Below, piece by piece: positions 1 to 5,378 of a stretch of 5,378 nt of DNA. Position numbers and translations under genes: made by a program. The stretch lies in the IMG/VR virus record IMGVR_UViG_2695420579_000006, positions 1 through 5,378 of that record; one strand, 5' to 3'. Source of the DNA: a virus (Duplodnaviria > Heunggongvirae > Uroviricota > Caudoviricetes). Within the stretch, counting starts at the first letter, position 1. The number at the start of each line of letters is the position of its first letter. The notes under the pieces are model-generated. The model was not told the origin of the DNA. It worked only from the letters and a program-made list of their open reading frames with translations, and made no database searches.

Positions 1-58
1 TACTTAAGTATTTTTGATTCTATTCCGGCACCATCTAAAACTTCAAACGCGTTGAAAA

Positions 59-84
59 TAAAAACAAAAACCCGCCGAAGCGGG
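59..84 (-). terminator. Rho-independent terminator at the 3' end of hok-family transcript copy A
   Basis: Minus-strand hairpin CCCGC-UUCG-GCGGG (plus 71-84) followed by a U-run (plus-strand A-run 61-70). Confidence 0.6.
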
Positions 85-154
85 TTAAGTGTGGGTGCAT
101 TGAGGATGCCTGACCCATCAGAGGTGGCGAGGGATTTCTCCCCCGCCTGGTCTC

Positions 155-172
155 TTACTCCTCAGGTTCGTA
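155..172 (-). CDS. hok: 3' fragment of a hok-family toxin gene, HokD/RelF-like C-terminus (...YEPEE, stop at 155-157); the 5' part is lost in the N gap
   Basis: Minus-strand translation of 158-172 gives YEPEE then TAA. The flanking 3' UTR (97-172) is homologous but diverged from the copy B 3' UTR (284-359). Confidence 0.5.
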   Translation of the reverse strand, partial: YEPEE

Positions 173-193
173 NNNNNNNNNNNNNNNNNNNNN
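173..193. other. Assembly gap (21 N); true length and content unknown
   Basis: Run of n characters in the sequence. Confidence 0.95.
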
Positions 194-238
194 CTATCTG
201 CGAAGGTGCGCGAATCAAATTCACCGGAAATAAACAAC

Positions 239-282
239 AAAAAACCCGCCGAAACGCTGAGAGATCACAGCGATGGGCGGGT
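239..282 (-). terminator. Rho-independent terminator of hok mRNA copy B
   Basis: Minus-strand stem CCCGCC(282-277)/GGCGGG(250-245) with an inner CGCUG/CAGCG pairing, followed by a U-run (plus-strand A-run 239-244). Confidence 0.6.
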
Positions 283-353
283 TAAGTGCGGGTGCGTTGA
301 GGATGCCTGACACATCAAAGGTGGCGGGAGATTACTCTCCCGCCTGGTCACTC

Positions 354-509
354 TTACTCTCTAGATTCGTAGTCTACGAAAACAGCGACCTCCGTCTGGC
401 CGATTCGGATTCGTACCTCGCAGAGGTCTTTCCTCGTTACCAGTGCCGTCACTATGACGGTTAAACAGATGACGATCAGGGCGATTAACATCGCCTTTTG
501 CTGCTTCAT
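354..509 (-). CDS. hok: Hok/Gef-family type I toxin (51 aa: MKQQKAMLIALIVICLTVIVTALVTRKDLCEVRIRIGQTEVAVFVDYESRE), copy B
   Basis: Internal ATG at 509-507 of the 70-aa ORF 354-566, preceded by AAGGAGAAG. Strong similarity (from memory) to HokD/HokC: single TM helix and the conserved RKDLCEVRIR...TEVAVF core. Confidence 0.85.
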   Translation of the reverse strand: MKQQKAMLIALIVICLTVIVTALVTRKDLCEVRIRIGQTEVAVFVDYESRE

Positions 510-566
510 AGCCTGCTTCTCCTTGCCTTTCGGCACGTAAGAGGCTAACCTACATTTGTGAGACAT
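354..566 (-). CDS. mok: mok-like reading frame: in-frame 19-codon N-terminal extension of hok (70 aa), copy B
   Basis: ATG at 566-564 with GAGG 10 nt upstream. Its position matches mok of hok/sok loci (and MokC, as I recall it) relative to the sok promoter, which lies inside it. Confidence 0.5.
   Translation of the reverse strand: MSHKCRLASYVPKGKEKQAMKQQKAMLIALIVICLTVIVTALVTRKDLCEVRIRIGQTEVAVFVDYESRE
523..551 (+). promoter_or_regulatory. Predicted sok antisense promoter (-35 TTGCCT 523-528, 17-nt spacer, -10 TAACCT 546-551), copy B
   Basis: Sigma70-like hexamers with 17-nt spacing on the strand antisense to mok/hok. Same position and similar sequence to the plasmid R1 sok promoter as I recall it. 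Confidence 0.5.
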
Positions 567-628
567 AGATTGGGCCTCAGATTAATGTTAAGCGTCTTGC
601 AGGACGCGTAATGTTAACTGGGGCTTTT
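556..628 (+). ncRNA. sok: Predicted Sok-like antisense RNA (about 65-70 nt), copy B; ends approximate
   Basis: Starts just downstream of the predicted promoter and is antisense to the mok start and SD. Ends in a stem GCCUCAG(574-580)/CUGGGGC(615-621, one G-U pair) followed by UUUUCUCU. Confidence 0.5.
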
Positions 629-666
629 CTCTGTCTGCCTTACAGTGACATACCCGAGGCAGACAG

Positions 667-681
667 CCTCAAGCACCCGCA
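667..681 (-). promoter_or_regulatory. Candidate 5' tac-like element of hok mRNA, complementary to the 3' fbi-like element at 287-302
   Basis: Minus-strand 5'-UGCGGGUGCUUGAGG (681-667) is complementary, with one bulged base, to minus-strand CCUCAACGCACCCGCA (302-287) about 380 nt downstream in the same transcript. Confidence 0.45.
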
Positions 682-684
682 GCA

Positions 685-720
685 ATCTTACCGACACCGA
701 TAAGAAAACGCTATTTTTTA
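685..720 (-). promoter_or_regulatory. Approximate hok promoter region, copy B (-10 candidate TAAGAT at 690-685; no clear -35)
   Basis: Position inferred from the predicted 5' end of hok mRNA; the -35 match is poor. Confidence 0.3.
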
Positions 721-847
721 TTGCCAGCACCATCTATCCAGGCTAGTTTATCTGCGTCAGAACGGCGCAATGCGCTCGCCTGAGATACGTTTACTTGCCA
801 TGGTAACAACAGGTAACGGCAATTGCTGTTTCTGTTTTGTTTCCTTC

Positions 848-878
848 AAAAACCCCGGACCATCAATCCGGGGTTTTT
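848..878. terminator. Bidirectional intrinsic terminator between the upstream operon and the hok module, copy B
   Basis: Stem CCCCGGA(853-859)/UCCGGGG(867-873) flanked by an A-run (848-852) and a T-run (874-878). Confidence 0.65.
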
Positions 879-883
879 GTTTG

Positions 884-967
884 TTAACCCCAACGGCAAA
901 TCGAATACACCACCAGCGCCACCGCCATCGCAATTCCTACCGTTGTTAATGCTTCAGGCCAGGTCAT
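884..967 (-). CDS. Conserved 27-aa micro-ORF ([27 protein letters not shown]), predicted small hydrophobic peptide, copy B
   Basis: ATG at 967-965 overlaps the TGA of the 114-aa gene (ATGA). GGAGG lies 10 nt upstream, and the stop sits immediately before the terminator. An identical arrangement occurs in copy C with a different upstream gene. Confidence 0.45.
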
Positions 968-1308
968 CGTAAAATATCCTCCACGCTTATCAGTCCGTTC
1001 CGCTCCAGATAACTCATCGCCTTATCCGGTAATTTGCAGTCTGGCTTCGCTTTCCTCAGTTGCCAGGTTAACTGCTTTACCAGCATGGTTAACTCATCGA
1101 CCAGACGCTGATATCCCACTGGTTTGTATTCATGCAATTTACCGGCTGGCTCTGCTGCCAGCGATACCAGTGCGATTTCCAGAACAGCAATATCCATCTT
1201 ATATGTGCGGATGATGTCATGGTCGATTGTGCCCGGTATGCACAGTCTCTGTGCTTCAATAGTCTCCTCTGCGTGAGCTATTAACTGCTCTCTGGTAAAA
1301 GTCGTCAT
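964..1308 (-). CDS. Hypothetical prophage protein, 114 aa, carrying the shared N-terminal MTTFTREQ...[10 protein letters not shown] module
   Basis: Full ORF with AAGGGG SD 8 nt upstream of the ATG. Start overlaps the stop of the 55-aa ORF (ATGA). Confidence 0.7.
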
Positions 1309-1472
1309 GCCGTAGCCCCTTCTTGATATTTTTCAAACCAGAACACAACCGGCTCTGCTTCCAGCGATGCCAGCGCAATCCGTGCCAGTTCCATTTGTTC
1401 ACCACGGGTAAGCCCGTTTTCAAGCGGGTTTTTAATGAACAATTCAATACGTTCTTTGGTAATAGTGGTCAT
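1305..1472 (-). CDS. 55-aa mosaic ORF: N-terminal module related to the 221-aa gene, C-terminal 16 aa identical to the HNH C-terminus
   Basis: AAGGAG SD then ATG at 1472-1470. The 5' end is near-identical to 4476-4455. The 3' block 1306-1353 is identical to 4474-4521. Confidence 0.55.
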
Positions 1473-1482
1473 GTGTTACTCC

Positions 1483-1681
1483 TTAACCCGCAGTGCTTTC
1501 AACTGATGAGGGGAACAAAATCTTTTCATCAAACCCTGCATTCATATCATGAACAGCAACACACCAATCCATCGACGAACGATTATCAAGAGCCTCCATG
1601 ATTTCATCCATGCGGCGTAGGTCATACAGGTAAATGCTTTTATCGCCAATGGTGTAAAAGCCAATTTTTTTCGGTGATGGA
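1483..1681 (-). pseudogene. 3' remnant (about 66 codons) of a gene interrupted by the IS600-like element
   Basis: The open frame runs from the IS end at 1682 to TAA at 1485-1483. The first 10 codons of the listed 76-aa ORF come from IS terminal sequence. Confidence 0.45.
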
Positions 1682-1724
1682 TGAGGTGTACTGGCAATAG
1701 CGGACACTACCATTTGTTCTTTTT

Positions 1725-2543
1725 TTAAGCAGCCATCTGATGATATTTTTCCCTGAAGGCTGCCGGGGAGATATTCCCCAGACGAGAGTGACGACGCTGA
1801 CGATTGTAGAAAATCTCAATGTATTCCCGTATTACTGAGATGGCTTCATCCCGGTTATTAAAACGATAGTGGCTCAGGCTCTCATTTTTCAGCGTTCCCC
1901 AGAAGCTTTCCATCGGAGCGTTGTCGTAACAGTTACCTTTACGCGACATTGATGTTTTCAGACCAGACTGCTCCTGTATGACCCGGTAATCGTATGCGCA
2001 GTACTGTGAACCTCGATCAGAGTGGTGGATTAGCCCGGCAGGTGGGCGCTGGCTCCTGAGCGCCATAAACAGGGCTTTACCTGTCAGCTCTTTTGTCATG
2101 CGCTCTCCCATGGCGTAGCCGACAATTTCGCACGTATAAACATCTTTGATGCCAGCGAGGTACAACCATCCCTCCTGTGTGGCAACATACGTCAGGTCCG
2201 CCACCCAGACCTGATTTGGTGCTGTAGGAGCGAACGTCTGGTTCAGCAGATTTGGCGCAACTGGCAGATTGTGGTTCGAGTTCGTAGTCGCTCTGAACTT
2301 GCGTTTCTGCTTACAGCGTAGCCTTAGCTCCTTACGAAGACGTGCCAGTCGGTCACGACCAACGATGATGCCATTCTCTGCCAGCTCCGTCTGGAGCCGC
2401 CGGGTTCCATATGTTTCGCGAGTGCGGATATGTGCCACCTTAATCTCCAGTTTTAGCCGCTCATCACTTTGTTTTCTGTCTGAGGGTTCATGCTGTACCC
2501 AGTTGTAATAACCGCTCCTGGATACACCAAATACCTGACACAT
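1725..2543 (-). CDS. insB: IS3-family transposase OrfB (272 aa from the first ATG; frame stays open upstream into the frameshift window)
   Basis: Protein carries the rve/DDE integrase core (from memory). It is in the -1 frame relative to orfA. Confidence 0.9.
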   Translation of the reverse strand: MCQVFGVSRSGYYNWVQHEPSDRKQSDERLKLEIKVAHIRTRETYGTRRLQTELAENGIIVGRDRLARLRKELRLRCKQKRKFRATTNSNHNLPVAPNLLNQTFAPTAPNQVWVADLTYVATQEGWLYLAGIKDVYTCEIVGYAMGERMTKELTGKALFMALRSQRPPAGLIHHSDRGSQYCAYDYRVIQEQSGLKTSMSRKGNCYDNAPMESFWGTLKNESLSHYRFNNRDEAISVIREYIEIFYNRQRRHSRLGNISPAAFREKYHQMAA

Positions 2544-2578
2544 CGCTTCAATGGGAAATTGTTGTCGCCATTGTTCGA

Positions 2579-2819
2579 TTAACGCGTATTTTTCAGCGAC
2601 TCCTGTGCAAAATACGCTGTTGCTTTTTTTAATATATCTCGCTCAAGGCGAGCTTCATTTAACGCCTTACGCAGTTGCAGAATTTCAGATTCCAGTTCAG
2701 CCACCGTGCGGGAACCAGGAGTACCGAGCCCTTTTCTGGCGGCGGTAACCCATTGTCCTAAAGTGCCTTCAGGAAGAGATAATCGGGAAGCGCCTTCACT
2801 GATCGAAAGTTGATTTTCA
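2579..2819 (-). CDS. insA: IS3-family transposase OrfA, 5'-truncated (residues ~22-100; helix-turn-helix and leucine-zipper region)
   Basis: Translation ENQLSISEGASRLSLPEGTLGQWV...ILKKATAYFAQESLKNTR matches IS600 OrfA as I recall it. The native start codon is absent. Confidence 0.8.
2584..2630 (-). promoter_or_regulatory. Programmed -1 ribosomal frameshift site (A AAA AAA G at 2630-2624) with downstream 9-bp stem (2618-2610 / 2592-2584) producing OrfAB
   Basis: A heptanucleotide run of A in the orfA zero frame. The -1 frame is continuous into orfB. The stem GCGUAUUUU/AAAAUACGC begins about 6 nt downstream. Confidence 0.6.
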
Positions 2820-2820
2820 N
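2820..2820. other. Single ambiguous base at the junction between the truncated IS and the hok copy C 3' region
   Basis: IS orfA homology ends at 2819; hok-module homology (equivalent to 339 onward) begins at 2821. Confidence 0.9.
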
Positions 2821-2835
2821 CCCGCCTGGTCACTC

Positions 2836-2991
2836 TTACTCTCTAGATTCGTAGTCTACGAAAACAGCGACCTCCGTCTGGCCGATTCGGATTCGTACCT
2901 CGCAGAGGTCTTTCCTCGTTACCAGTGCCGTCACAATGACGGTTAAACAGATGACGATCAGGGCGATTAACATCGCCTTTTGCTGCTTCAT
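2836..2991 (-). CDS. hok: Hok/Gef-family type I toxin, copy C (identical protein to copy B)
   Basis: Same as copy B, offset +2482. It differs by one synonymous third-position change (ATA to ATT, Ile, at 2935). Confidence 0.85.
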   Translation of the reverse strand: MKQQKAMLIALIVICLTVIVTALVTRKDLCEVRIRIGQTEVAVFVDYESRE

Positions 2992-3048
2992 AGCCTGCTT
3001 CTCCTTGCCTTTCGGCACGTAAGAGGCTAACCTACATTTGTGAGACAT
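2836..3048 (-). CDS. mok: mok-like in-frame extended reading frame, copy C
   Basis: Identical to copy B at offset +2482. Confidence 0.5.
   Translation of the reverse strand: MSHKCRLASYVPKGKEKQAMKQQKAMLIALIVICLTVIVTALVTRKDLCEVRIRIGQTEVAVFVDYESRE
3005..3033 (+). promoter_or_regulatory. Predicted sok promoter, copy C (-35 TTGCCT 3005-3010, -10 TAACCT 3028-3033)
   Basis: Identical to copy B at offset +2482. Confidence 0.5.
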
Positions 3049-3110
3049 AGATTGGGCCTCAGATTAATGTTAAGCGTCTTGCAGGACGCGTAATGTTAAC
3101 TGGGGCTTTT
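3038..3110 (+). ncRNA. sok: Predicted Sok-like antisense RNA, copy C; ends approximate
   Basis: Identical to copy B at offset +2482. Confidence 0.5.
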
Positions 3111-3329
3111 CTCTGTCTGCCTTACAGTGACATACCCGAGGCAGACAGCCTCAAGCACCCGCAGCAATCTTACCGACACCGATAAGAAAACGCTATTTTT
3201 TATTGCCAGCACCATCTATCCAGGCTAGTTTATCTGCGTCAGAACGGCGCAATGCGCTCGCCTGAGATACGTTTACTTGCCATGGTAACAACAGGTAACG
3301 GCAATTGCTGTTTCTGTTTTGTTTCCTTC

Positions 3330-3360
3330 AAAAACCCCGGACCATCAATCCGGGGTTTTT
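3330..3360. terminator. Bidirectional intrinsic terminator, copy C
   Basis: Identical hairpin to 848-878. Confidence 0.65.
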
Positions 3361-3365
3361 GTTTG

Positions 3366-3449
3366 TTAACCCCAACGGCAAATCGAATACACCACCAGCG
3401 CCACCGCCATCGCAATTCCTACCGTGGTGAATGCCTCAGGCCAGGTCAT
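3366..3449 (-). CDS. Conserved 27-aa micro-ORF, copy C ([27 protein letters not shown])
   Basis: ATG at 3449-3447 overlaps the TGA of the DUF551-like gene (ATGA), with AGGAGG 7 nt upstream. The three differences from copy B are all at codon third positions. Confidence 0.45.
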   Translation of the reverse strand: MTWPEAFTTVGIAMAVALVVYSICRWG

Positions 3450-3811
3450 TGATTCACCTCCTGCGGTGGTTCCGGTAGCGGCATCCAGTGAGTTGAGCTC
3501 TCTACTTCAACGCCGTCTTTGTCCACAAAAGCCATCTTATTCCCGCCACGAGTGGGGCAAAAAACCTTATCCCAGGAACCGGGGAATACATTCCCGAGAT
3601 CATCGAGAAGAATCACATCGCAATATTCAGCAGGAACTGCATCACTACAGCTTATCCAGCCAGCCGGAGCTACCGGAGAGTTGCCAGCCTTACGCATGGC
3701 CATTTCCACGATTTCAACCATATCTCCTGGTGGAATTTTACAAAGTTGCCCAATACATTTCTGCTGCCTGGCATATTCGAGAATGTGCTCCAGTTTGGTT
3801 CGATTAATCAT
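3446..3811 (-). CDS. Prophage protein, 121 aa, DUF551-like (C-terminal THWMPLPEPP motif)
   Basis: Full ORF with GGGAG SD. Start overlaps the stop of the 221-aa gene (TAATG). The DUF551 call rests on the recalled C-terminal motif only. Confidence 0.65.
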   Translation of the reverse strand: MINRTKLEHILEYARQQKCIGQLCKIPPGDMVEIVEMAMRKAGNSPVAPAGWISCSDAVPAEYCDVILLDDLGNVFPGSWDKVFCPTRGGNKMAFVDKDGVEVESSTHWMPLPEPPQEVNQ

Positions 3812-4476
3812 TATTTATCTCCCTTAAGCATGGCAGCGCGGCAGGCGTTCCAGCCATCAACATAATCAAACGTATTACTATCGTTTGGCCCGATTTCATC
3901 CGGCACTATCGGCTCTGGTTGGATAGTGACGTTGGCAAAGGCAGCACGCAAACCGGTTTTAATTTCTTCGATTTCATCAGAGCCAAGCGATGAATCTGAC
4001 AGTGCGTGATGGAATGCGTAAGCCATGTCGTCGTTTACTGCAACCGGCACTGCCGGCGCTGCGTAAAGCGGTGTTATATCTGCCCGAAAATCACATGCTT
4101 TATGCAGTCGTACCCAACACTCAACTTCCGCTTTGTCAAAATATATAGCAGTGAACGTATTAGATTCCTGGTCAACTTGAGTAAACGTCACCTTCCACGC
4201 TACAGCTACGGCTTTCCATCCATCAGGTTGTCGCATTCGCGGGGCAGCATAAAGCTCATGCATTCCATCAGGCAGCGAGTGACCCACATACTCACCGAAC
4301 CCGTCAATACACATGCCCCCATCTTCAACAATGCATTCCGCTACAGGCTCTGCTTCCAGTGATGCCAGAGCGATAAGCGCCAGTTCACGAATTTCACCGC
4401 CGTCTATATCGTCAATATCATCGCGGCCAGAAATGTTAGCCAGCCATTGCAGTCGCTCTTTGGTAATAGTGGTCAT
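3811..4476 (-). CDS. Hypothetical prophage protein, 221 aa, with the shared N-terminal module (MTTITKER...[10 protein letters not shown]) and two LYAAP motifs
   Basis: Full ORF with AAGGGG SD 8 nt upstream. Start overlaps the HNH stop (ATGA). Confidence 0.75.
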   Translation of the reverse strand: MTTITKERLQWLANISGRDDIDDIDGGEIRELALIALASLEAEPVAECIVEDGGMCIDGFGEYVGHSLPDGMHELYAAPRMRQPDGWKAVAVAWKVTFTQVDQESNTFTAIYFDKAEVECWVRLHKACDFRADITPLYAAPAVPVAVNDDMAYAFHHALSDSSLGSDEIEEIKTGLRAAFANVTIQPEPIVPDEIGPNDSNTFDYVDGWNACRAAMLKGDK

Positions 4477-4838
4477 GCCGTAGCCCCTTCTTGATATTTT
4501 TCAAACCAGAACACAACCGGGTCAGATTTCATTTCAACCAATCCCATACGAACCAGCGCTTTGCCTTTCCCGGACGCAAGGAATTCACGACGACCATCAC
4601 TGATAATTCGTCGATAATCTTCCAGGCTACTGCAATGCTTGTGCAGATTGCATGGGTGGCATGCTGGTACCATGTTGGATATATCGTCACGTTCCTGGTG
4701 AAGCATATTTCCATCAAAACGAATGACCGGTTTTACATGGTCTGCATGCCACTTTTCGCCAAGTTCGCAGCCGCAATAAGCGCAGCGACCACCGAACTTC
4801 ATGCGCAGTTCTGCACGTTGTTTTTTCGTCAGTGCCAT
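4473..4838 (-). CDS. HNH endonuclease, 121 aa from the internal ATG at 4838
   Basis: HNH signature CAYCGC...WHADHVKP...ACHPCNLHKH. The start is chosen at MALTKKQ, with AAGGAAA upstream and 1 nt after the stop of the 72-aa ORF. The longer 151-aa frame would overlap that ORF. Confidence 0.8.
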   Translation of the reverse strand: MALTKKQRAELRMKFGGRCAYCGCELGEKWHADHVKPVIRFDGNMLHQERDDISNMVPACHPCNLHKHCSSLEDYRRIISDGRREFLASGKGKALVRMGLVEMKSDPVVFWFEKYQEGATA

Positions 4839-4839
4839 A

Positions 4840-5058
4840 TCAGCTTTCCTTATACGGATTAATTTTATTGTGCAGTGTGTTGAATGACGCCCATACCACG
4901 TCGTTATACAATTCAATAACTGGCTCAATTATTTTTCCGATTATCCAGACAAAAATTAGCGGGGATATCGGTGTCATCAACACGATAAACAGAATGAGAA
5001 ACAGGAATTCTGTTGTTCTACTCTTTCGCGGATATTTTTTTCTAAATAATGTAACCAT
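4840..5058 (-). CDS. Small membrane protein, 72 aa: basic N-terminus, one long hydrophobic segment; sits in a locally AT-rich segment
   Basis: ORF MVTLFRKKYPRKSRTTEFLFLILFIVLMTPISPLIFVWIIG.... Stop is 1 nt before the HNH start. The leader is structured (see hairpin feature). Confidence 0.5.
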   Translation of the reverse strand: MVTLFRKKYPRKSRTTEFLFLILFIVLMTPISPLIFVWIIGKIIEPVIELYNDVVWASFNTLHNKINPYKES

Positions 5059-5064
5059 TCATTA

Positions 5065-5086
5065 CCGCCCTTTCGGGCGGTCTCCT
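5065..5086 (-). promoter_or_regulatory. Leader hairpin CCGCCC-GAAA-GGGCGG (5080-5065) between an AGGAG (5086-5082) and the ATG of the 72-aa ORF
   Basis: Perfect 6-bp GC-rich stem with a GNRA tetraloop. The AGGAG is 23 nt from the ATG in linear sequence but about 7 nt if the hairpin is formed. Confidence 0.4.
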
Positions 5087-5150
5087 GATGATTTGAGGGT
5101 GCAGAAATCCCTCCGGTTAAGGATTAAATTTTTAACAGTGCTAAATTTAA

Positions 5151-5378
5151 TTATTCAGTTCTGGATTTTGTCGCCCTGCGTATCCGCGCTTTCGCGTTAC
5201 GCTCAATCTGTATCAGCTTTTCTATATTTCTCCGCCTTTCCTGTTCCTCCTGGCGCAATAGCCTTACATCATCTGCCAGTCTGGTTTCTCTTTTTGCCAC
5301 AGAGAGCATCCAGTCAAACGGCTCCACAACCGCACCGCAGATTTTACAGCGGACCTGACGCTCTTTTTCGTCAACCCG
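5151..5378 (-). CDS. 3' portion (75 codons) of an unidentified gene running off the right edge; contains CKICG and a basic, coiled-coil-like C-terminus
   Basis: Minus-strand frame is open from the window edge to TAA at 5153-5151 (...RVDEKERQVRCKICGAVVEPFDWMLSVAKRE...ARIRRATKSRTE). Not in the ORF track because the start lies outside the window. Confidence 0.4.
   Translation of the reverse strand, partial: RVDEKERQVRCKICGAVVEPFDWMLSVAKRETRLADDVRLLRQEEQERRRNIEKLIQIERNAKARIRRATKSRTE

Follow-up and report, generated by a model that had tools for sequence, protein, structure and literature searches.

We analysed a 5,378-nucleotide (nt) stretch of a Caudoviricetes genome (IMG/VR record IMGVR_UViG_2695420579_000006, positions 1 to 5,378; "the window" in what follows), in which five consecutive open reading frames (ORFs) at 5058-3366 on the minus strand are joined by short overlaps or a single-nucleotide spacer. 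In order of translation these encode a DUF4014 membrane protein (gene 1), a predicted HNH nuclease (gene 2), a mosaic protein of 221 amino acids (aa; gene 3), a DUF551 protein (gene 4), and a hydrophobic micro-protein of 27 aa (gene 5). This five-gene block is likely to be an ordinary mosaic accessory segment of a lambdoid (Rac-like) prophage of Shigella and Escherichia coli, rather than a dedicated five-part defence system. The original prediction for this region had raised the possibility of an exclusion or defence-type function, with ordinary early-region accessory genes as its fallback, and it is the fallback that is favoured by the exchange of gene partners and the lambdoid context described below.

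Five tightly joined genes on the minus strand

The minus strand is the true coding strand of the block, since three of the products match the Pfam families DUF4014, HNH, and DUF551 and the 221-aa protein has 3289 database relatives. The long shadow ORFs on the plus strand of the block gave no Pfam match. The first two genes meet at TGA-t-ATG (gcTGAtATGgca), with the HNH start 1 nt past the stop of gene 1, while genes 2 and 3 overlap in ATGA (ggcATGAcc), genes 3 and 4 in TAATG (aaaTAATGatt), and genes 4 and 5 in ATGA (tcaATGAcc). Both the ORF list and our reading of the sequence agree with the original prediction on the coordinates and on these four joints. An alternative TTG start at 4928 for the HNH gene, which would give a product of 151 aa, was rejected because it lies inside gene 1, brings no domain, and is absent from the annotated homologs, all of which are 121-122 aa long. 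The five tightly joined genes are real genes, and the identities first given to them (membrane protein, HNH, DUF551-like, micro-ORF) hold up against Pfam and PHROG matches, hydropathy, and conservation.

Purine-rich Shine-Dalgarno-like stretches (AAGGAAAG, GAAGGGG, AAGGGAG, and AGGAGG) are found within the last codons of the preceding gene. Together with the overlaps and the 1-nt spacer, these give the junctions the form expected for translational coupling, as had been proposed, and the block junctions very probably do couple translation. Translation of each downstream gene would proceed by re-initiation, since its Shine-Dalgarno sequence is part of the final codons of the preceding gene and its start codon overlaps the preceding stop or follows it by 1 nt.

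Standard joints persist while partners are exchanged

The original prediction took coupling of this kind to indicate co-function. Two samples of IMG/VR viral contigs bear on this claim, 80 with an HNH protein at least 95% identical at the amino acid level and 80 with DUF4014, and the window proteins were mapped onto both. Across the 80 HNH loci the upstream joint is +1 nt, barring two exceptions (2 and 4 nt), and the downstream joint is always an ATGA (-4) overlap. The genes that meet the HNH gene at these joints are far more varied. Upstream partners fall into at least 7 clearly unrelated families (DUF4014, MKNRKAK.., MTELTKEQ.., MEQQANAE.., the Ea22-like MSKIDYQ.., MTALNKQ.., MTITTKEQ.., and others), and downstream there are about 10 gene types, the commonest being a 114-aa gene (29 loci) and then the 221-aa gene (15 loci). 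The unrelated upstream genes all finish in ...K-G-E/D-stop, encoded by AAAGGAGAnTGA and followed by one base and the ATG.

The same is seen from the side of DUF4014, which keeps its +1 spacer whatever comes next. The gene after it is HNH in 29 of 76 scorable loci (32 of 78 under looser criteria), and in the other 47 it belongs to one of five other N-terminal types, among which are Ea22N-type genes, an 87-aa gene, and a 95-aa gene. The window itself holds a 77-nt repeat (4455-4531 and 1287-1363) that runs from the HNH 3' end through the ATGA into the opening codons of the gene that follows, and this repeat is one such standard joint.

The junction format is a standard joint of the region that is kept through partner swaps. 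Because the format persists when partners are exchanged, coupling says nothing on functional partnership, and the step from coupling to co-function does not follow for this block. The block genes are not found as a fixed set across unrelated genomes; their partners vary freely.

A lambdoid accessory region

The closest complete genome, E. coli FDAARGOS_944 (locus L001), contains the whole block at 99.8% identity within a lambdoid Rac-like prophage. On one side lie replication genes (DUF977, a DnaC-like ATPase, and YdaU) and on the other nin/Q-like genes (DUF1367, DUF1364, and DUF1133), after which come the lysis and packaging genes. The position of the block in this prophage is that of nin in lambda. 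Tight junctions are not peculiar to the block here, as about 8 of about 20 other same-strand neighbour pairs in the prophage have a -4 or -1 overlap or a +1 spacer (hand count), and they occur in the packaging, lysis, nin-like, and immunity genes as well.

Some part of the 1693-bp block is present in 1765 of 5426 complete E. coli genomes, while at least 80% of it is found in one place in only 2 of these. All five exact proteins were already public, each in at least 1000 contigs, mainly from Shigella sonnei and S. flexneri, under names that include "DUF4014 family protein", "HNH endonuclease", "hypothetical protein", and "DUF551 domain-containing protein". Since the block copies are 99-100% identical, their abundance in Shigella reflects clonal inheritance of one prophage.

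The same families recur in the exo-xis/ea region of lambda, P22, and Shiga toxin (Stx) phages, among accessory genes such as Ea22, EaA, and the orf60a/61/63 neighbours. In the leftward exo-xis region of Stx phage 933W, DUF4014 is represented by L0067, with L0065, described as "similar to EaA of P22", two genes downstream, and in the exo-xis region of Stx phage ArgO145 a DUF4014-HNH pair adjoins ead/Ea22-like genes. The proteins of this region are mosaic as well: they have the N-terminal part in common, while their C-terminal domains, DUF551 among them, are swapped (PMC10834534). Unlike the exo-xis genes, the block in the E. coli prophage lies in the rightward operon, between replication and nin/Q-like genes rather than between exo and xis.

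The block modules also extend beyond lambdoid phages. On an ENA metagenome scaffold (L162, 3781-4681), a full-length relative of the 221-aa protein (P0008, 74% identical) follows DUF4014 at a +1 joint within a P2-like element that has a Phage_GPA replication protein, ParM/StbA partition genes, and a P2-type portal and terminase. There is no HNH gene and no DUF551 gene nearby at this locus.

The HNH protein

The product of gene 2 passes the Pfam model PF01844 (2.2e-6, 28.2 bits versus a cutoff of 21.4) and matches phrog_2118 at 8.8e-57. Its HNH motif is complete (C19xxC22, D33-H34, N55, C60xxC63-N64) and aligns with that of the small HNH nuclease in PDB 4h9d, which was the single, weak match of a PDB sequence search (E 0.058). 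The protein is stand-alone, with no further domain in the Pfam scan, and a NinG-like match is weak (0.0024, 18.2 bits, under the Pfam threshold of 25.4). These features point to a zinc-finger beta-beta-alpha-metal nuclease without a specificity domain, and its predicted activity would be non-specific or structure-specific. IscB and retron HNH identities suggested by NCBIfam were rejected, as they are sub-threshold and reflect likeness at the level of the HNH domain (TIGR02646 reached 21.8 bits versus a cutoff of 52). A literature search on exo-xis together with HNH returned nothing relevant.

The distribution of this gene could also be that of a selfish, free-standing endonuclease cassette of the homing type among lambdoid prophages, with its neighbours as bystanders. 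The HNH gene is present or absent at a fixed joint (DUF4014-TGA-n-ATG, then HNH or another gene), and its nucleotide identity is 96-100% in most of the 80 loci and 90-95% in a few, in contexts that differ. DUF4014, by comparison, is 87-97% identical where its downstream partner differs, and some flanks of the HNH gene are unrelated. HNH relatives at least 90% identical are present in Salmonella, Citrobacter, Raoultella, and Enterobacter. A 55-aa ORF elsewhere in the window (1472-1305) is a chimera of an Ea22N-type N-terminus and the last 14 codons of the HNH gene, and has the look of a scar left by recombination at the 3' joint of HNH. However, the slot and its joints are shared by other cassettes (the 87-aa and 95-aa genes, for instance), so that homologous recombination suffices as an explanation, and a 75-aa gene fragment upstream is as conserved as the HNH gene (95-100%). 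We see neither a target site nor an intron or intein context, and the protein has no obvious DNA-recognition domain. We therefore regard a homing-type cassette as unlikely and read the HNH gene as one exchangeable member of a mosaic accessory segment.

Genes 3 and 4 and the EaA/Ea22-type modular family

The 221-aa protein gave no match in Pfam (E ≤0.1) or NCBIfam, and its PHROG matches are piecewise. A map against 120 relatives divides it into three modules, N (residues 1-46/79), M (about 88-134), and C (about 135-221), of which N begins "MTTITKER..." and C runs "VAVNDDMAYAFHH...DGWNACRAAML". These modules turn up independently among the relatives. Many E. coli prophages encode a single chain of 245-290 aa (P0035 and P0017, for example) in which N runs straight into C and DUF551 follows. 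M and C come after a PF13935 Ead/Ea22 domain in P0044 and precede a region named DUF550 by its source in P0097, and PF13935 is also carried by P0054 and P0093, which share M and C. Between the blocks lie short invariant linkers, namely "LYAAPP..VVPDE", "DGWNACRAAML", "GNSPVTPDGWISCSERMP", "THWMPLPEPPQEV", and one further linker of 12 residues; a literature search on the linker sequences found nothing on these genes.

Gene 4 encodes a protein that passes the DUF551 model PF04448 (3.4e-19, 69.9 bits versus 22), with the complete domain (1-68/68) at residues 51-117. In the E. coli relatives sampled, the borders of this domain are invariant ("PVTPDGWISCSERMP" and "THWMPLPEPPQEV"), while the core of 45-70 residues between them exists in at least 8 very different sequence types. 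This pattern could arise from selection that diversifies the core, or from recombination that homogenises the borders.

The resulting architecture is mosaic, with a shared N-terminal part and interchangeable C-terminal modules, and is found in lambdoid accessory regions. Elsewhere the modules occur in fusion with DUF551 or with Ead/Ea22 domains, which places genes 3 and 4, as judged from their sequences, as two pieces in the EaA/Ea22-type family of mosaic, modular proteins from the exo-xis and nin regions. Ea22 variants are known to be mosaic, with DUF551 as a portable C-terminal domain on many N-terminal parts, and Ea22 is pro-lysogenic through a host partner not yet identified (PMC10834534). 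A DUF551 protein of the cryptic prophage CPS-53, YfdS, helps to inhibit DnaA-dependent initiation when it and YfdQR are oversupplied; in that system either YfdS or YfdT is needed together with YfdQR (PMC4776307). By analogy with Ea22 of lambda and Stx phages, the most likely role of the products of genes 3 and 4 would be to bind host factors and to modulate host physiology or the choice between lysis and lysogeny.

Structure prediction of the 221-aa protein, which the original prediction had proposed as a check, was uninformative. AlphaFold2 with a 46-sequence alignment gave a mean predicted local distance difference test (pLDDT) score of 54, with some confidence (block means of 71-83) only at residues of about 90-139, and Foldseek found no match of the model in the PDB at E ≤0.001. 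In a PDB sequence search with the 221-aa and DUF551 proteins, nothing appeared at E ≤1 except a chance-level AsnC match, and neither protein gave a fold match or showed homology to the solved C-terminal domain of lambda Ea22.

Alternatively, genes 3 and 4 (to which gene 5 may or may not belong) might encode the halves of a split EaA/Ea22-type protein, which would be translated in a coupled manner and then assemble, genes 1 and 2 being unrelated neighbours. We hold this to be possible, though doubtful, and it is compatible with the block being a mosaic accessory segment. The fused polypeptides of 245-290 aa, with N and C modules and DUF551 in one chain, provide a link of the Rosetta-stone type. 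A full-length relative of the 221-aa protein (P0009, 66% identical) directly precedes a DUF551-containing protein, a pyrophosphohydrolase-DUF551 fusion, and in the window the TAATG overlap joins the two genes. On the other hand, the full-length relative in the P2-like element has no DUF551 gene nearby, and DUF551 is portable, being found on many unrelated N-terminal parts in our alignments as well as in published work (PMC10834534). The 121-aa DUF551 protein moreover has its own N-terminal 45 residues, which are absent from the fused forms.

The genes downstream of HNH could further be seen as a polymorphic, cassette-shuffled family under diversifying selection in an arms race between phage and host or between phages, for example in counter-defence or exclusion specificity, an idea that we consider rather unlikely. 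Its members would be the 221-aa, DUF551, 114-aa, and 55-aa proteins, with a shared N-terminal docking or oligomerisation module, "MTT(I/F)T...ALASLEAEP", and with interchangeable C-terminal modules that would include DUF551 as a small beta-barrel with a highly variable core and invariant flanks. If this were true, the invariant linkers and the joints of Shine-Dalgarno sequence, stop, and start would be kept as recombination sites for new combinations.

The two predicted small membrane proteins

The gene 1 product matches DUF4014 (PF13198) over residues 1-71 of 72 at 1.3e-25 (90 bits versus a gathering threshold of 23.2) and phrog_1832 at 1.5e-44, and is a homolog of L0067 from the exo-xis region of 933W. 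The gene is AT-rich, with 36% GC, and hydropathy indicates one strongly hydrophobic segment at residues 19-37. No paper was found in a literature search on DUF4014, and we give no weight to the label "released from the phage upon host infection" that PHROG attaches to it. In the 92-nt spacer 5' of the block, a GC-rich GNRA hairpin is placed between an AGGAG motif and the DUF4014 start. This hairpin is a candidate for a hairpin-bridged ribosome binding site, as its folding may restore a normal distance between the Shine-Dalgarno sequence and the ATG. A 6-codon mini-ORF overlaps the DUF4014 start.

The 27-aa product of gene 5 is essentially a single hydrophobic helix. Among 102 copies there are 34 DNA alleles, and codons 10-27 vary mostly at wobble positions, with 26 synonymous versus 17 non-synonymous change types (hand count) against a background of about 1 synonymous site per 3 non-synonymous sites. 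By this conservation test the 27-aa ORF is judged to be a real gene. The gene coupled to it by ATGA from upstream is of either the DUF551 type or the 114-aa type. The 27-aa ORF itself is annotated in a few genomes, as "prophage protein". Both DUF4014 and the 27-aa peptide are predicted to be small inner-membrane proteins.

Bearing on a defence function

A dedicated multi-gene exclusion or defence system would have the HNH protein as effector, the 221-aa and DUF551 proteins as sensors or regulators, and the membrane proteins together with the neighbouring hok/sok locus as agents of abortive killing. PADLOC did relate the HNH protein to the defence nucleases PtuB (3.2e-8) and PDC-M01B (6.2e-6), both at the domain level and short of the family thresholds, the block lies in a variable cargo slot beside a toxin-antitoxin locus, and the exact five-gene combination is stable and abundant in Shigella. 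The likeness to Septu PtuB and to the retron-type HNH of TIGR02646 consists of a shared beta-beta-alpha-metal core and a CxxC zinc finger; unlike those systems, the block has no PtuA ATPase, retron, or other partner, and its HNH protein is 121 aa long compared with 210-300 aa for PtuB.

Several observations argue against such a system. Its components do not co-vary, as HNH and DUF4014 have many other partners, and the whole block was found in only 2 of the 5426 E. coli genomes. PADLOC assigned no defence system to the window proteins, with neither a PtuA nor an M01A partner present, and gave nothing meaningful for the other four block proteins (for the 221-aa protein, only a chance-level JetA match at E 0.062). 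A terminator parts hok/sok from the block, and clonal inheritance accounts for how common the combination is in Shigella. We thus find a dedicated defence system very improbable, and the suggestion of an exclusion or defence function for the block as a whole is not borne out. The Pfam and PADLOC profile searches that had been put forward as a check gave no defence assignment and three named Pfam families (DUF4014, HNH, and DUF551). A literature search on lambdoid hotspots and defence found nothing on these genes. Since these profile searches linked neither the 221-aa protein nor the 72-aa protein to a housekeeping phage function, individual modules may have a defence or counter-defence role.

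The border of the block and the neighbouring hok/sok locus

The original prediction placed the end of the cassette at a hok/sok module. Such a module does adjoin the block, but the block is closed by a strong intrinsic terminator (Table 1), and hok/sok lies about 170 nt further on. Because this terminator stands between them, hok/sok is outside the five-gene operon and is an adjoining but independent transcription unit and stabilisation module. In related loci the terminator is conserved jointly with gene 5, and the two form the conserved right border of the variable slot.

Table 1. Features of the block and its surroundings, in window coordinates
Feature	Position	Strand	Basis
GC-rich GNRA hairpin, CCGCCC-GAAA-GGGCGG	5064..5081	minus	RNA fold of 5150-5040, z = -2.6
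Gene 1, DUF4014 membrane protein, 72 aa	5058-4840	minus	
Gene 2, HNH nuclease (predicted), 121 aa from ATG	4838-4473	minus	
Gene 3, mosaic protein, 221 aa	4476-3811	minus	
Gene 4, DUF551 protein, 121 aa	3811-3446	minus	
Gene 5, hydrophobic micro-protein, 27 aa	3449-3366	minus	
Bidirectional intrinsic terminator closing the block, AAAAACCCCGGA...TCCGGGGTTTTT	3361-3329	both	terminator scan and sequence
sok	3160-2986	minus	RF01794, 118 bits versus gathering threshold 59
mok/hok ORF	3048-2836	minus	neighbouring hok/sok locus
hok	2991-2836	minus	PF01848, 6.7e-22

In the neighbouring locus sok overlaps the 5' part of the mok/hok ORF, which is the canonical hok/sok arrangement, and the locus is a full member of the hok/sok (hokD-type) family of chromosomal type I toxin-antitoxin loci in lambdoid prophages. 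It is not always found beside these modules, being missing from some contexts that have them, such as Stx phage ArgO145. In ArgO145 (L002, 4365-4876) a DUF4014-HNH-114-aa block is followed by an opposite-strand protein toxin-antitoxin pair in the place of hok/sok. It would seem that toxin-antitoxin modules are drawn to this border of the variable slot.

A paralogous slot with its own terminator and hok/sok is found at 1713-354. Its ORFs (884-1713; 76, 55, 114, and 27 aa) are joined by ATGA-type overlaps, and the first of them matches phrog_1714 and has its N-terminus cut by an IS600-like piece, while the second is the chimera with the HNH 3' end described above. In viral contigs the commonest arrangement is HNH followed by the 114-aa and 27-aa genes.

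The window derives from a draft scaffold, with an "n" at 2820 and a run of Ns near 173-194. The hok 3' untranslated region is cut at 2820/2833 by IS600-like sequence or by a scaffold join, and directly past the hok stop lies a truncated insertion sequence (IS) of the IS3 family (IS600-like, 2833-1715) with an OrfA that lacks its 5' end and an intact OrfB of 272 aa. The 3' region of hok mRNA is needed for fold-back control, and 3' ends disrupted by IS elements are familiar from chromosomal hok loci of E. coli K-12; should the insertion be genuine, this copy of hok is probably either no longer regulated or no longer functional. About 630 bp (339-967 versus 2821-3449, 99-100% identical) are directly repeated and hold the 27-aa ORF, the terminator, and hok/sok, so that the window contains a duplicate hok/sok at 354-678 and a second 27-aa gene at 967-884. 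The hok mRNA 3' end occurs in a third copy at about 55-160, with a further 3' end at 229-338. A true tandem duplication of the hok and micro-ORF copies together with the IS600 piece was considered and rejected, since other assemblies show 2821-5378 to be contiguous, with a complete hok 3' end and with IS600 elsewhere. The "n" at 2820 and the run of Ns at 173-194 are probably scaffold joins at IS600 copies. Because independent assemblies carry 2821-5378 unbroken, the block region is sound despite the draft scaffold.

Comparison with nin and CPS-53

The lambda nin region (ninA-ninI) is a packed array of overlapping, dispensable delayed-early genes between P/ren and Q. The block resembles it in genome position, in its string of ATGA-type overlaps, in the embedded terminators, and in having a small nuclease-type gene. 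The block differs from nin in that no recognised Nin protein is encoded among its five genes; the NinG match of the HNH protein is sub-threshold. The genes yfdQ-yfdR-yfdS-yfdT of CPS-53 are likewise an accessory cluster of a cryptic prophage with a DUF551 protein (YfdS), but the DUF2303 and HD-domain partners of that cluster are absent from the block.

How the block may work

As a mosaic accessory segment, the five genes would be co-transcribed within the early operon, with transcription stopping at the terminator past gene 5. Whole genes are swapped as cassettes at the standard joints, and protein modules are swapped at the short invariant in-frame linkers. The products would act largely separately, as two membrane proteins, an HNH nuclease, and EaA/Ea22-type adaptors that bind host factors through interchangeable C-terminal modules.

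Several points weigh against this account. The IMG/VR loci were ranked by similarity to the window HNH and DUF4014 proteins, so the partner frequencies given above are biased. Transcription of the block from an upstream early promoter is deduced from orientation and context only, and in the E. coli prophage an IS3-family element lies between the replication genes and the block. The analogy with Ea22 is drawn from modules in common with Ea22-like proteins and is strained by the 221-aa protein, which matches neither the Ead_Ea22 coiled-coil model PF13935 (IPR025153) nor the C-terminal domain of lambda Ea22. The frequent adjacency or fusion of 221-aa-type and DUF551 proteins means that genes 3 and 4 may well cooperate, and to say that all products act separately would be too strong. 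The account is weakest on what each protein would do biochemically.

Significance

Regions of this type are already described in the literature, both as mosaic exo-xis/nin accessory genes and as mosaic Ea22 proteins with a DUF551 C-terminal domain. Three of the five block proteins belong to named families, and all five sequences had been deposited previously. The least ordinary aspects of the block are its standardised joints of Shine-Dalgarno sequence, stop, and start, the invariant linkers around variable modules such as the DUF551 core, and the usually unannotated 27-aa peptide. A methodological lesson is that start/stop overlaps in such phage regions are a property of the joint and not evidence of co-function. 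The prophages of Shigella and the Stx prophages in which these genes reside are medically important, and the modular EaA/Ea22/DUF551-type family to which genes 3 and 4 appear to belong is very widespread, uncharacterised, and built by combinatorial exchange at short invariant linkers.

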